Virus genome (UHGV): UHGV-2027706
Reading direction: 5' to 3' (one strand)
Length of the DNA stretch: 18,689 nt
From: a virus
Both the position numbers and the translations under genes were made by a program. How positions within the stretch are numbered: position 1 is the first letter of the stretch; every line of letters starts with the position of its first letter. Positions 1 to 3,844 of the stretch are shown in pieces. The notes under the pieces were generated by a model. That model was not told where the DNA came from, searched no databases, and saw nothing but the letters and a program-made list of their open reading frames with translations.

Positions 1-1074
1 TCATTTGTCGATTTCAATTTTGTCCCATTCCCGTCCACGGCTGTCCCTATACCGCGCCGCTATTGAATCTGATTTATGCCCGAGAAGACGTTGAGCAAAC
101 TTATCGCCAATCTGGTTCCGGTATAGCCTCGCTGACAGGCTACGCAGTTCATGGAATGTTGGCGGGTTTCCATCAAATGAGAGTCCAGATGCATTTCTCG
201 CCTTTGTAAAATACTTTGATACTGTTTTCGGGGAAAGCTGATCGTGATGCTTTGATGCGATTATAGTTTCACTGCTGCTGGCCTCCCTGCATTTCTGTAG
301 TGTATCAGCCAATGAGATATTGAGCGCGTCAATCGTTAGCGTTAGTGGAATGGCGAGTTTAGCCCCTGTTTTACTCTGTTCAATGTGAAGATGGTTGTCG
401 TTTATGTCTGACCATTTCATTCTGCACAAATCGCCGACTCTCTGCCCTGTAACGACGGCCAAATCCATCGCCAGCCTTAGCCAGATAGGGAGAGGTTCGG
501 CTGCATGGTAAATCTCGACATACTCATTAGCTGTCAGCCTTGAGCGCCTTACTTCTGACTTTGCTGTACGGGTTGCTGTTACCGGATTCGTTGCCACATG
601 CCCCTCGGCTATTGCTTCACGAAAAACGTCAACAAGGGTTGACCTGATTAATTTTGCGGAAGCTGCTTTACCTTCTGCTACGTAGGTGTTTAGCATTGCT
701 GCCACTTCTTTCGTTGATATGTCAGTGAGCGGTTTGTCCGGCAATTTTCTTCGGATTGCCCTGATTTTGCTGGCGTAGTCGAGTAGAGTTTTCGGCCTGA
801 TCCCCCTTTCGGTGAGGATTCTTTCATATCGGTCAAGCCACACATGAAGAGTGATTGCGTCACCGCCTTTAATTCTGTCTATCAGTGATTTGCGTCCGCT
901 GTCTGAGAGTAACTCAATATTGGCCTGTATTGCTTCAGTGATTGCTATCCTCCTGTCTCGGCCTAATCCAAACTCTTTACCCGTCCTTGGGTCCCTGTAG
1001 CAGTAATATCCATTGTTTCTTATATAAAGGTTAGGGGGTAAATCCCGGCGCTCATGACTTCGCCTTCTTCCCAT
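1..1074 (-). CDS. int: Phage integrase, lambda Int-like tyrosine recombinase (complete, 357 aa; stop codon at window position 1-3)
   Basis: 357-aa ORF starting MGRRRSHERRDLPPNLYIRNNGYYCYRDPRTGKEFGLGRD, near-identical over long stretches to lambda Int as I remember it; C-terminal catalytic region with HELRSL...LGHKSD...Y. ATG at 1072-1074. Confidence 0.95.
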   Translation of the reverse strand: MGRRRSHERRDLPPNLYIRNNGYYCYRDPRTGKEFGLGRDRRIAITEAIQANIELLSDSGRKSLIDRIKGGDAITLHVWLDRYERILTERGIRPKTLLDYASKIRAIRRKLPDKPLTDISTKEVAAMLNTYVAEGKAASAKLIRSTLVDVFREAIAEGHVATNPVTATRTAKSEVRRSRLTANEYVEIYHAAEPLPIWLRLAMDLAVVTGQRVGDLCRMKWSDINDNHLHIEQSKTGAKLAIPLTLTIDALNISLADTLQKCREASSSETIIASKHHDQLSPKTVSKYFTKARNASGLSFDGNPPTFHELRSLSARLYRNQIGDKFAQRLLGHKSDSIAARYRDSRGREWDKIEIDK

Positions 1075-1270
1075 TTCTGATCCTCTTCAAAAGGCTACCT
1101 GTTACTGGTCGATTTAAGTCAACCTTTACCGCTGATTCGTGGAACAGATACTCTCTTCCATCCTTAACCGGAGGAGGGAATATCCTGCACTCGCGTACCC
1201 ATCGACGAACTGTTTCAAGGCTTCTTGGGCGTCGCTGGCGAGCGTTCCACTCCTGAAGTGTCAAGTACAT
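1052..1270 (-). CDS. xis: Excisionase Xis (72 aa), 3' end overlaps int start
   Basis: MYLTLQEWNARQRRPRSLETVRRWVRECRIFPPPVKDGREYLFHESAVKVDLNRP matches lambda Xis from memory; classic xis-int overlap. Confidence 0.92.
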   Translation of the reverse strand: MYLTLQEWNARQRRPRSLETVRRWVRECRIFPPPVKDGREYLFHESAVKVDLNRPVTGSLLKRIRNGKKAKS

Positions 1271-1326
1271 CGCAAAGTCTCCGCAATTACTCGCAAGGGA
1301 GCGAGCAGTGGTTGATTTTCTCCAAC

Positions 1327-1348
1327 AAAAAAGGAGCCGAAGCTCCTT
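1327..1348 (-). terminator. Putative intrinsic terminator downstream of the antA-like gene
   Basis: Plus strand AAGGAGC-cgaa-GCTCCTT (7-bp stem, 4-nt loop) preceded by an A-run, so the minus-strand RNA reads hairpin then UUUUUUGUU; lies 7 nt past the ORF stop at 1355-1357. Confidence 0.5.
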
Positions 1349-1354
1349 TGATGA

Positions 1355-1978
1355 TTAAAATTCGAATTGTCTCGCCCGAAGGCTTTTTAACATTGGTCTT
1401 GCCCGTTCGAAAAGGGCGCTTGTCTGGTCAAGTCGCGTCGCCTCCCTGAGTAGTACATCTCTGTTTTTCGTCACCGTGTAGAAGGTTTCAAACGCAATGT
1501 CATACAGCTTGCTCGCGTATGATGAGTTAAGTTCCTTCATTATCGGGTACAGGCGTTTGCAGGTGTCCTGTGCATTCTCCATCTGTACCTGCATGTAGCA
1601 GAGGAGGATGATTTCCTCGTCTGTGAATTGCTGCGCTGGTTGCATGCTGCGAAGTTTCTTTTCGCACTCGATGAAGTATCGGCGTATCTGGCGGCCTTTT
1701 TCGTTACGCTCGACCATCGCCAGTTCTTTGGCTGTGTCGAGGGTGAGGTGGTAGTCCTTGCGGTTGTGACCGCCTCTACCAGATGTTTGCTTTCCCAAAT
1801 TGGAAAGCAAAATATAGTCTTGATTTTCAATGAATTCGTATTCTGAAATGCGATTTGTAATCCATGCCGCAAACACCTTTTTCACGCCTAAAAAAGCATG
1901 CAGATCGCGGGCATTGCAGAGTAGGGCTGTTTCGTTGGATATAGTGCCGTTGAATACGGGGATGAGTTGACTGGTCAT
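1355..1978 (-). CDS. AntA-domain phage antirepressor-like protein (207 aa)
   Basis: ORF with ATG at 1976-1978 and strong SD AAGGAGG 5 nt upstream; the N-terminal half (IPVFNGT...CNARDLHAFLGV...FAAWITNRI...YEFIENQDY) resembles the AntA/AntB antirepressor N-terminal domain from memory. Family assignment unverified. Confidence 0.6.
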   Translation of the reverse strand: MTSQLIPVFNGTISNETALLCNARDLHAFLGVKKVFAAWITNRISEYEFIENQDYILLSNLGKQTSGRGGHNRKDYHLTLDTAKELAMVERNEKGRQIRRYFIECEKKLRSMQPAQQFTDEEIILLCYMQVQMENAQDTCKRLYPIMKELNSSYASKLYDIAFETFYTVTKNRDVLLREATRLDQTSALFERARPMLKSLRARQFEF

Positions 1979-1987
1979 GATGACCTC

Positions 1988-2055
1988 CTTTGAAGTTTTA
2001 GTTAGCGATCACCAGTTAGTGGCTGGTGATCGGGTGTCAACTAGAGCCTTCAAAG
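1988..2055 (-). promoter_or_regulatory. Long imperfect hairpin in the 5' leader of the antA-like gene, abutting its SD
   Basis: Three nested inverted-repeat segments: CTTTGAAG (1988-1995) with CTTCAAAG (2048-2055); TAGTT (1999-2003) with AACTA (2039-2043); CGATCACCAG (2006-2015) with CTGGTGATCG (2023-2032). Confidence 0.4.
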
Positions 2056-2333
2056 ACGCTCCGGGCATATTCCCCTTGCGGGTATTGTATTACGCCTCTC
2101 CACCCGACCTTTGTACGGATGTGACTATGCCAAATTGCAGGCATAAAAAAGCCGCAAAGCTATCGGGTGCGGATGACCGCTTTGAAGTTCTAGTGCGGTC
2201 AGTATGCGATAGCTCTAGCGGATTTGTCAAATCATGTAGTCTTTATCTTGCTGTAAGCCGCGCCATTCGGGCTTTTCCCCAGATTTGGGGGAAACTATCT
2301 GCGAAGTATTCACCTTTGACGGCAAGTTGCAGG

Positions 2334-3059
2334 TTAGCCACGGTTAACCTCCTGCGGCGGTTCCGNNNNNNNNNNTAGCCGCATCCAGTGAGTTGCTTGC
2401 TCAATACCATTACCCGGCTTAATCGTTGCATCTCCGCGCCGAAAGGTGCTTCCGGTATAGCGTGCGGAGCATATTAGCGCTTCAACCAGAGAGCTATCGA
2501 AATTCACCGAAATAAGCACGTTCTGGCCCTTTTCAGGCATTCGATCACTACAGCTTATCCAACTATCCGGAGTTCCCGGAGAGTTGCCATTTACATCGAA
2601 GTTTGGCTCTGCGTCCTGAACCAGGAGGATGTAACCATTCTTGGCAGTATCAAGTTCTAACGCCTCGGTGACGGTGCCGAAATAGCGATTACCTAAATCA
2701 GCATCACAAGTGCTTACATCAATGGAAACTTCCATGCCTTCGATTAATTCTGGCAAGTTGTAAGTTTGGTTTACAGGTTGGCCTCCCTGAAGCATGGCGG
2801 CGCGGTGACACCAGATAATCCAGCCAAGCGCCATATCCCATGCCATGTATTCTCTATCGCCATTTTTCGCCCTGCGGCGATCTACAGATTCCCCGAAACG
2901 CTTCTCCATAAATAATTCATAGGCTGCTCGTTCATCCGATACTGCTGCCAGTGATGCCAGTGCAATTCGTGCCAGTTCCATTTGTTCGCCACGGGTAAGC
3001 CCGTTTTCAAGCGGATTTTTAATGAATAATTCGATACGTTCTTTGGTAATAGAATTCAT
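2334..3059 (-). CDS. Hypothetical phage protein (about 241 aa); C-terminal domain possibly Eaa/DUF551-like; 3' end unreliable because the ORF reads through the N gap
   Basis: ATG at 3057-3059, 1 nt after the stop of the upstream small gene; protein-like composition; C-terminal WISCSDRMPEKGQNVLISV motif recalls prophage DUF551 proteins (from memory). Last 20 codons contain XXXX from the gap. Confidence 0.55.
   Translation of the reverse strand: MNSITKERIELFIKNPLENGLTRGEQMELARIALASLAAVSDERAAYELFMEKRFGESVDRRRAKNGDREYMAWDMALGWIIWCHRAAMLQGGQPVNQTYNLPELIEGMEVSIDVSTCDADLGNRYFGTVTEALELDTAKNGYILLVQDAEPNFDVNGNSPGTPDSWISCSDRMPEKGQNVLISVNFDSSLVEALICSARYTGSTFRRGDATIKPGNGIEQATHWMRLXXXXEPPQEVNRG
2366..2375. 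other. Assembly gap (run of 10 N)
   Basis: Ten consecutive n characters; true length of missing sequence unknown. Confidence 0.99.
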
Positions 3060-3060
3060 G

Positions 3061-3252
3061 CTATTTCACCTTAATCTCAACATTTCGTAGCTTTAGCTCT
3101 ACTGGCAGGTCTGACTTTCCGGTTAATGCTAATGCGAGATTTTCTGGAGTAATGAGAGCCGTTATTGTTTTCCCCATCGACAGACGAATAATCATTCGTA
3201 TCTCGCGATCGTCACATGCTCCCGGTCGAACAATTGAGATTTGTCCGTTCAT
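3061..3252 (-). CDS. Small hypothetical phage protein (63 aa, MNGQISIVRPG...)
   Basis: ATG at 3250-3252 with SD AAGGAG 8 nt upstream, 1 nt after the stop of the Ea22-like gene; I prefer this start to the longer 90-aa track ORF, which has no SD. Confidence 0.55.
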   Translation of the reverse strand: MNGQISIVRPGACDDREIRMIIRLSMGKTITALITPENLALALTGKSDLPVELKLRNVEIKVK

Positions 3253-3253
3253 C

Positions 3254-3844
3254 TCACTCTCCTTTGATGCGAATGCCAGCGGCGCGTGGCACATTAACTT
3301 CCACGATGCGCACAGTTGGTTTGTACATCTCAATCGCTGTCAGCCAGTCAGCGCCAGTCATGCGCTTTTCCGCATCGCCATTAGTCCACTGAACCGGTAC
3401 ACCAATAGCCTTCATCGCGATTTCTATTTCCCCGGCAATGGCGCTTTTTCCGCAACCAGTAAAACCAGAAACAACGACAAGAACTTCACCTTTGGCTGGT
3501 TTTATTTCCCGTGCTTCCAGTTCTGCAATACGCTTACTCCCATCCGAGATAACACCTTCGTAATACTCGCGTTGCTCGTTGAGTTTTGATTTTGCTTCCT
3601 CAAGCTCAACACGCAGCTTCCCTACCGTTAGCGCAATATCCTCGTTCTCCTGGTCGCGGCGTTTGATGTATTGCTGGTTTCTTTCCCGTTCATCCAGTAG
3701 TGCCAGCACTGTGGCGGGAGTGCAATGCTTCATAAAGTCGTTCAGCGCAGTGATTCGCTGGTCGAACGGCATAACCGGTTCCTCTCCAGCGATTTTTGCG
3801 TTCGCTGCCGCTTCTCGCAGCGCCTGTTTGTCAATCTCGCTCAT
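3254..3844 (-). CDS. Ea22-like early protein (196 aa) with coiled-coil middle and a C-terminal P-loop-like motif
   Basis: Strong SD AGGAGG 6 nt upstream of ATG 3842-3844; N-terminus [13 protein letters not shown] resembles ead/Ea22 family proteins from memory; GFTGCGKS at residues 127-134 (nt 3443-3466). Confidence 0.65.
   Translation of the reverse strand: MSEIDKQALREAAANAKIAGEEPVMPFDQRITALNDFMKHCTPATVLALLDERERNQQYIKRRDQENEDIALTVGKLRVELEEAKSKLNEQREYYEGVISDGSKRIAELEAREIKPAKGEVLVVVSGFTGCGKSAIAGEIEIAMKAIGVPVQWTNGDAEKRMTGADWLTAIEMYKPTVRIVEVNVPRAAGIRIKGE

Follow-up and report, generated by a model that had tools for sequence, protein, structure and literature searches.

Which kind of regulation underlies the repeated motif and the folded leader that precede an antirepressor-like gene in the virus genome UHGV-2027706? 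The gene encodes a 207-amino-acid (aa) protein with an N-terminal AntA domain (PF08346, 1.7e-26) and a P22AR_C domain (PF10548, 4.5e-10), and occupies positions 1355-1978 (start codon 1978-1976) on the minus strand of the 18,689-nucleotide (nt) stretch of DNA that was analysed as a whole and is referred to here as the window. Within the 355-nt intergenic region upstream of it (1979-2333), the part 1979-2195 had been viewed in a first-pass annotation as the control region of an antirepressor cassette, its repeats being either operator sites for a repressor, or targets for an antisense RNA or for translational control. The comparisons reported here support antisense or translational control. Judged from its sequence, the region 1979-2230 is quite probably an antisense RNA module of the type known from the immI region of phage P1, here built on a distinct RNA family, sRNA-Xcc1.

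The sRNA-Xcc1 element and its flanking repeats

On the plus strand the pattern GATGACC-N2-3-TTTGAAGTT-N-TAG matches the window only at 1979-2001 and 2172-2193, in agreement with the earlier description of a recurring motif of about 23 base pairs (bp), and is matched in none of 200 dinucleotide shuffles of the window. The two copies (22/23 nt) differ by one indel and two substitutions. The core CTTTGAAG is found three times in the 18.7-kb window, as had also been noted, namely at 1988-1995 and 2180-2187 (plus strand) and, inverted, at 2048-2055, all within 200 nt. The count of this core alone is not rare, three copies being reached in 20 of 200 shuffles; the signal lies in the clustering and the orientation.

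What had been overlooked is that an antisense RNA belonging to a known Rfam family is encoded between the two repeats, on the same strand. In an Rfam scan sRNA-Xcc1 (RF02221) was the only family found in the whole window, located at 2020-2109 on the minus strand with a score of 64.5 bits (gathering score 53) and covering the full length of the model (1-87 of 87). The model alignment shows a three-way junction, consisting of a 9-bp stem P1 (2109-2101 with 2036-2028), a P2 domain (2097-2063) that contains the internal loop AAUACAAUA/GAAUA and is capped by a GCAA tetraloop, and a stem P3 (2062-2058 with 2047-2043), followed by the 6-nt linker J3/1. The conserved P2 core AAUACAAYACCCGNAAGGGGAAUA is present within this junction, an ACCA tail is found at 2027-2024, and the predicted mature RNA extends over about 2109-2024. 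The P2 domain, with its AAUACAAYA/GAAUA internal loop and GNAA tetraloop, is near-invariant from Enterobacteria to Acidobacteria and metagenome-assembled genomes of Planctomycetota. By eye, the 5' flank of stem P1 (2110-2123, minus strand; CAUCCG, CCCGAUCAA in many relatives) resembles the 3' strand of this stem, and could pair with its 5' strand in a precursor.

Two segments of the junction are complementary to sites within the repeats. The P3 loop UCUUUGAAG (b', 2048-2056, minus strand), which is the inverted third copy of the core, is complementary to both b1 and b2, one in each repeat, while the second antisense segment, a' (UAGUUGA, 2037-2043, minus strand), is made up of the J3/1 linker and the last base of P3. 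The downstream target (1984-2004, minus strand) lies inside the repeat at 1979-2001 and comprises a2 (UAACUA, 2004-1999) and b2 (CUUCAAAGG, 1995-1987), overlapping the Shine-Dalgarno sequence (SD) AAGGAGG (1990-1984) of the AntA-family gene. A copy of this target is present about 78 nt upstream, inside the second repeat (2171-2193), and comprises a1 (ACUAGA, 2194-2189) and b1 (CUUCAAAG, 2187-2180), together spanning 2180-2194 on the minus strand. Directly after stem P1 there is also a variable hairpin (CGAUCACCAG/CUGGUGAUCG, 2006-2032, minus strand), an inverted repeat complementary at 10 of 10 positions, the 5' arm of which includes the final 5 nt of the 3' strand of P1. Most related loci also have a hairpin at the equivalent position, its sequence varying between them.

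When the minus strand of 1979-2060 was folded, the minimum free energy (MFE) structure was exactly the three-segment hairpin described in the first-pass annotation (2056-2048 with 1995-1987, 2043-2038 with 2004-1999 and 2032-2023 with 2015-2006), with an energy of -29.7 kcal/mol compared to -16.1 +/- 2.7 kcal/mol for shuffles (z = -5.06; 0 of 200). Its 3' arm, said to abut the SD, does adjoin it, and in fact reaches further, covering the first four bases of AAGGAGG. This hairpin is the cis form of sRNA-Xcc1 paired to the ribosome-binding site, with a' pairing to a2 in the MFE fold. For sRNA-Xcc1 together with the ribosome-binding site the MFE structure is this same OFF fold, with the P3 loop and J3/1 on the site (-49.2 kcal/mol), compared to about -38 kcal/mol when the junction and the ribosome-binding-site region are folded separately; the OFF fold is also the MFE structure of the whole leader (z = -5.28). 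As the P1 3' strand, the P3 loop and J3/1 serve both structures, the junction fold and the OFF hairpin compete.

Covariation of loops and targets in related loci

In order to follow these pairings beyond the window, contigs of IMG/VR and of GTDB (one genome per species) were scanned for the invariant P2 core, giving at least 120 loci each. The locus counts below are among the matches listed in both scans, which comprise over 200 related loci, of phages as well as of bacteria from several phyla. Elements were anchored on stem P1 and the P2 core, the first SD-preceded open reading frame (ORF) was taken as the downstream gene, and the pairing measure was the longest complementary run, compared between true and permuted pairings. 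Fifteen of 16 sampled loci give RF02221 matches above the gathering score (17 matches in total).

All four pairings covary in the more than 200 loci listed (permutation z = 8-19), and the P3 loop of almost all phage-type loci is the reverse complement of 7-13 nt located 5' of, and extending into, the SD. For b':b2 the run was 7.9 against 5.35 +/- 0.13 in permuted pairings (0 of 10000; 73 unique viral-contig leaders), and 6.38 against 5.02 +/- 0.105 in the independent genome set (z = 13, rising to 15.5 without a Xanthomonadales subgroup). For a':a2, the a2 segment being located a few nt further 5', it was 6.65 against 5.70 +/- 0.10. The upstream target behaves in the same manner, with 7.8 against 6.93 +/- 0.11 and 7.75 against 6.39 +/- 0.10 (the latter in the genome set) for b':b1, and 6.99 against 5.37 +/- 0.09 for a':a1. 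The stems P1 and P3 covary as well (more than 100 related loci). In a MAFFT alignment of 62 leaders P3 is 92.6% paired, and changes on both sides are seen in eight of nine pairs of the helix between loop and ribosome-binding site; none of 500 shuffles reaches the observed pair counts, and a slide control peaks at register 0. The frequent U-G pairs further indicate that the constraint acts on the sense-strand RNA.

The loop and target sequences themselves vary by locus, being CUUUGAAG/CUUCAAAG in the window, CUUAUUUG/CAAAUAAG in locus L047, CUCGUUGA/UCAACGAG in L009 and CUGAACU/AGUUCAG in L079. Two modules may also occur on one contig, as in L191 (5401-5486 and 7246-7333) and L047 (2239-2324 and 2773-2861). 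The two L191 modules have different loops (UUCACUUUG and UUCUGAUUG), each of them matching the ribosome-binding site of its own module, a case of orthogonal specificities in nature. A variant group (L001, L004, L022, L023, L051, L071, L092 and L119) has the Xcc1 P2 core, although its sole sampled member, L001, gives no match at the Rfam gathering score. The loop in this group, AUGCGG, matches CCGCAU about 90 nt downstream, and as this site lies beyond a promoter-like TTGACG-N17-TATTGT, the target mRNA may here have a promoter of its own.

These data bear directly on the proposal that the repeats are DNA operators for a repressor protein. Two near-identical copies of 22-23 bp do flank the regulatory region, and one of them adjoins a promoter-like site. 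However, the copies are direct and non-palindromic, one is located over the ribosome-binding site inside the transcribed sequence, and no repressor gene is present in the cassette. Their sequence also changes with the same-strand RNA loop rather than being conserved, and the frequent U-G pairs would be A-C mismatches on the other strand. An operator function is therefore hardly credible, whereas the other proposal, that the repeats are targets of an antisense RNA or of translational control, agrees with the covariation of each copy with the RNA loop across hundreds of loci.

The upstream target is no relic, and is part of what looks like a small transcription unit, giving rise to an RNA of about 50 nt that mimics the ribosome-binding-site target. 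As read from the window, this a1b1/IsrK-like unit U (2145-2194, minus strand) comprises a1, b1, GCGG/CCGC and a terminator-like hairpin, in which CCGC (2172-2169) pairs with GCGG (2155-2152) ahead of a run of six U residues (2150-2145). A promoter-like site with 10 of 12 consensus matches precedes it on the minus strand (2201-2230; TTGACA at 2230-2225, 18 nt, CATACT at 2206-2201), and transcription is predicted to start near 2194. Promoter-like sites of the sigma-70 kind are found at the equivalent position in 59 of 168 unique related loci, compared to 8.1 expected from shuffles, with the end of the -10 element at a median of 24 nt 5' of b1. Most loci contain a stretch complementary to their own P3 loop 75-120 nt 5' of stem P1, and this b1 is preceded by an a1-type stretch complementary to J3/1, usually located in the loop of a small hairpin. 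A T-run is present in 137 of the 168 related loci, and among 127 unique U elements b1 is followed by CGG in 102, while a stem of at least 4 bp directly precedes the T-run in 114. An alignment of U with the a1b1 region of phage P1 scores 46, compared to 18.1 +/- 3.8 for shuffles, the two sharing GCGGnCAnCCGCA..CCGATA..TTGCGG.TTTTT. RNAalifold gave no structure for 50 upstream elements, as the terminator arms were misaligned by MAFFT, and stems were hence checked in each sequence.

The loop of the U hairpin (2156-2168, minus strand, in the window; 6289-6302 in L121) carries the motif CCG[ACT][ACT]A in 112 of the 127 unique elements; the motif recurs in phage P1, and does not depend on the sequence of the stem. 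Two further pairings were considered for this part of the leader and rejected. The first, between the terminator loop CACCCGAU and the 5' strand of stem P1, appears in the MFE fold of the whole leader, but the motif is constant where the stem differs and is present in phage P1 too. The second, in which GCGG/CCGC beside b1 would act as an antiterminator, is not general, other subfamilies being without such an alternative.

The downstream genes form a coherent set. The 88 distinct downstream ORFs of the listed loci include Pfam matches to KilA-N (20), AntA (14), P22_AR_N (13), Bro-N (13), Phage_pRha (9) and ORF6N (8), i.e. about 77 antirepressor-like domain matches in total, often combined with P22_AR_C. 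These counts show that one RNA leader precedes many members of the 'antirepressor-like' DNA-binding superfamily, and the module would accordingly be one that controls an antirepressor-like gene, as in the immI region of phage P1. A copy of Xcc1 upstream of an ORF6N gene is mentioned in passing in a paper on an APSE phage.

Related immunity systems and a proposed mechanism

The closest known counterparts are immI of phages P1 and P7, where an antisense RNA, c4, was reportedly described by Citron and Schuster in 1990, and IsrK of Gifsy-1. The heteroimmunity of P1 and P7 rests on the loop and target sequences, and c4 is said to be processed by RNase P, to go by a cited title of Hartmann et al. 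from 1995. In the phage P1 record the order on one strand is the P2c4 and P1c4 promoters, a1, b1, the 77-nt c4, a2, b2 (overlapping the icd SD) and icd-ant. The window shows the same layout at similar spacing, i.e. promoter(s), a1/b1, a structured RNA, a2/b2 at the ribosome-binding site and ant. Like sRNA-Xcc1, c4 (Rfam C4, RF01695) is a P1/P2/P3 three-way junction with two exposed antisense segments, b' (UCACUAAC) in the P3 loop, directed against SD-proximal b sites, and a' (CUGUCAA) in J3/1, directed against the distal sites, so that topology and polarity agree between the two RNAs. An ACC tail follows stem P1 in c4, comparable to ACCA in the window RNA, the upstream a1b1/terminator region is similar in sequence to U, and loop and target sequences are the specificity determinants in both. 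The two also differ in several respects. Stem P1 is 17 bp in c4 compared to 9 bp in the window RNA, and c4 has a plain UUCG hairpin in place of the conserved internal-loop P2 domain with its GNRA loop (2063-2097), a domain without part in the antisense pairings. The gap between a2 and b2 is 22 nt in phage P1 and 3 nt in the window. The target in phage P1 is the icd leader ORF, which is translationally coupled to ant, whereas in the window it is the ribosome-binding site of the ant gene itself, and the window cassette is situated in a lambdoid prophage, adjoining xis/int.

In Gifsy-1, long-range pairing keeps the transcripts that pass the IsrK terminator from being translated, the short IsrK activates translation of orf45-anrP (encoding the antirepressor AnrP) in trans, and a stable processed RNA, STnc1160, is located downstream of the terminator (Hershko-Shalev et al. 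2016, PMC4825925). The same authors likened this arrangement to the CI RNA of P4 with seqA/seqC (PMC4825925). U resembles IsrK in its putative make-up of promoter-like site, target mimic and terminator-like hairpin with a U-tract; they differ in that the isrK model misses the window, and in that the window is without an orf45-like ORF. The CI immunity RNA of P4 is likewise a processed small RNA flanked by complementary sequences on one transcript (PMC4825925), but it acts through premature transcription termination and on replication genes. As the downstream target in the window overlaps the SD of the Ant-like gene, translational control is suggested here, unlike in P4.

The comparison originally drawn was with immI of P22, in which an antirepressor gene is also silenced partly by an antisense RNA at the ribosome-binding site. 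There, however, the sar RNA is transcribed on the opposite strand, spanning the junction of arc and ant, and acts together with the protein repressors Arc and Mnt. No promoter-like site was found on the plus strand in 1000-3200, and the neighbouring genes are a DUF551 gene and xis, with no arc/mnt-like genes among them; the immI region of P1/P7 and IsrK of Gifsy-1 are the closer analogues. The 24B_1/d_ant case of Phi24B was rejected as a precedent, as d_ant is located downstream of the lysis gene R and is a different gene.

From its sequence, and in the later steps by analogy with c4, CI and IsrK, the module is predicted to operate as follows. Transcription from the promoter-like site at 2230-2201 would first run through the a1/b1 target mimic and then meet the weak terminator-like hairpin, yielding an IsrK-like RNA of about 50 nt. 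Transcripts reading through, as well as those of the early-left operon, would continue into sRNA-Xcc1, in which the P3 loop exposes b' and J3/1 exposes a'. These segments would pair with b2 and a2 over the SD, and the AntA-family gene would be held translationally silent in cis in the OFF fold. As is the case for c4 of P1 and CI of P4, sRNA-Xcc1 is probably also excised as a stable RNA of about 85 nt. Processing by RNase P would fit the acceptor-like P1 stem and the NCC tail, CC lying within 3 nt of the end of P1 in 84 of 93 loci, and excision also agrees with the 88-nt species mapped in Xanthomonas. The excised RNA would then repress in trans, by the same analogy, any ant mRNA with the same a2/b2 'specificity'. 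The a1/b1 RNA would compete for a'/b', and most likely titrates Xcc1 and thereby turns translation on, as IsrK does; alternatively, a1/b1 may be the site of a feedback of Xcc1 on termination, as in P4. The protein released from repression would be expected to have Ant-like activity.

Several observations weigh against this interpretation. The promoter-like site of the window is a single consensus match and weak when taken alone, and the U hairpin, with a stem of 4-5 bp and a 13-nt loop, falls below the criteria of the terminator scan. The energy of the duplex between Xcc1 and the ribosome-binding site is not distinct from that obtained with shuffled targets (57 of 500 shuffles), and the support for the pairing is for this reason comparative, with duplex energy left unused. 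The Rfam models C4, isrK (RF01394) and c4-a1b1 (RF03163) give no match in the window at E <= 10, and none at the gathering score in the 16 related loci; on phage P1 itself the C4 model scores 68.8 bits, and the a1b1 region of this phage matches isrK at a sub-threshold score. As these models miss the window, the case for kinship with c4 is built on topology, layout and the likeness of the U regions. No ORF, and hence no leader ORF of the icd or orf45 kind, is present between sRNA-Xcc1 and the start codon. Finally, the type sRNA-Xcc1 belongs to the Xanthomonadales subgroup, and in this subgroup the adjacent ribosome-binding site carries no loop match (z = -1.1); the rule relating loop and ribosome-binding site is thus not universal.

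The type member, from Xanthomonas campestris 8004, is a discrete 88-nt RNA, identified by Northern blot and rapid amplification of cDNA ends, and has been described as integron-borne, HrpG/HrpX-controlled and trans-acting, with many predicted targets (PMC2996969). The window RNA belongs to the same family by covariance model and has the same predicted length. It differs in its location, between DUF551 and AntA-family genes near xis/int instead of in an integron cassette, and in having matched flanking targets, where the adjacent ribosome-binding site in the Xanthomonadales subgroup is unmatched. In the Xanthomonadales-type copies (L123, L126, L128, L137, L143, L150 and others, from Xanthomonas, Rhodanobacter and Lysobacter) b1/a1 match the P3 loop perfectly, while the next ORF has a conserved ribosome-binding site that does not match the loop. 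The downstream target may be located elsewhere in this group, or it may be that only the pairing between the two RNAs matters.

One rival explanation would be that sRNA-Xcc1 in the window mainly acts in trans on host genes, as proposed for Xanthomonas and Xylella, and that the match to the neighbouring ribosome-binding site is incidental or the relic of a duplication. The literature cited above and the unmatched site in Xanthomonadales are both in line with this. It is nevertheless very unlikely, as all four pairings with flanking sites covary in two independent locus sets, a hypervariable loop is unfit for a conserved host target, and the loop finds its match in the upstream b1/a1 copy even among Xanthomonadales.

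Another explanation, also unlikely though less so, is a leader that acts purely in cis in the manner of a riboswitch or thermosensor, the Xcc1 junction sensing a ligand, a protein or temperature and competing with the SD-sequestering hairpin without any RNA acting in trans. All elements are indeed on one transcript, the window sequence cannot adopt the junction fold and the OFF hairpin at the same time, and the P2 internal loop and GNRA tetraloop are near-invariant across phyla although unpaired with the targets, as a binding site would be. A cis leader does not, however, account for a second, covarying target upstream with a promoter-like site and terminator of its own, nor for loop and target sequences that are hypervariable and yet matched, a usual trait of specificity determinants. 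The type member, moreover, is a discrete RNA of 88 nt (PMC2996969), and the layout is shared with c4 and IsrK, both of which act in trans. The two explanations are compatible, as repression in cis is part of the immI-type model favoured here.

Prophage setting and significance

The window covers the left arm of a lambdoid prophage, together with its immunity region. The genes int (1-1074) and xis (1052-1270) follow the antirepressor-like gene on the minus strand, and an intrinsic terminator-like hairpin with an 8-bp stem and a T-run (1330-1349, minus strand) closes the cassette, at the place where a dedicated terminator had been reported. With a promoter-like site and a terminator of its own, the description of the locus as a self-contained, tightly regulated antirepressor cassette is upheld. 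Upstream, a DUF551 gene (2334-3059) and an Ead/Ea22 gene (3254-3844) are located on the same strand, and genes for ERF, a CI-like S24 repressor, a Cro-like protein, CII, a DnaB-like helicase, Dam and Q are found further along the window. A run of 10 N at 2367-2376 within the DUF551 gene represents an assembly gap or masking.

The intergenic region 1979-2333 is 98-99% identical in many Shiga-toxin phages, and the leader of the O104:H4 outbreak phage P13374 is 98.6% identical to that of the window. Parts of a 1300-2400 query, covering the leader and the antA gene, are carried by 1583 of 5426 complete E. coli genomes. Near-identical Shiga-toxin phages annotate the regulated gene as 'antirepressor' or 'antB', and some phage records already annotate 'sRNA-Xcc1' at the position of the leader. 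A plus-strand ORF of 133 aa (1977-2378) with no Pfam match runs antisense over the whole RNA leader; it is annotated in P13374 (HE664024) as 'hypothetical protein ORF11', and probably likewise in other Shiga-toxin phages. The call is probably spurious, the sequence beneath it being that of a non-coding RNA.

Of the 23 papers in the searchable literature that name sRNA-Xcc1, those consulted contain no treatment of it as a c4-like regulator of antirepressor genes; in Rfam the family belongs to no clan, whereas C4 and c4-a1b1 are grouped in clan CL00128. The type of system is already known; what appears to be new is the placing of the widespread sRNA-Xcc1 family within it, with a P2 domain unlike that of c4 and a ribosome-binding site that is controlled directly. 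A far-reaching and rather doubtful extension would be that Xcc1 modules constitute an RNA immunity for antirepressor-like genes that spans phyla, in which the hypervariable triads of loop and targets form an orthogonal code letting several modules coexist within a cell, and in which the invariant P2 domain, absent from c4, binds a protein or small molecule and makes the RNA responsive to a signal.

The immI-type interpretation provides a testable function for RF02221, a family that thousands of genome annotations list as the 'trans-acting sRNA' of a plant pathogen, namely that of a gatekeeper of the KilA-N, Bro-N, AntA, Rha and ORF6N antirepressor-like genes of prophages. The matched sets of hypervariable loops and targets would likewise offer a natural library of orthogonal RNA regulators. 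The logic of c4 in phage P1 and IsrK in Gifsy-1 would be extended to bacteria far beyond the Enterobacteriaceae, as well as to lambdoid Shiga-toxin phages, including the O104:H4 phage P13374, in which the control of an antirepressor bears on prophage induction and the release of toxin.

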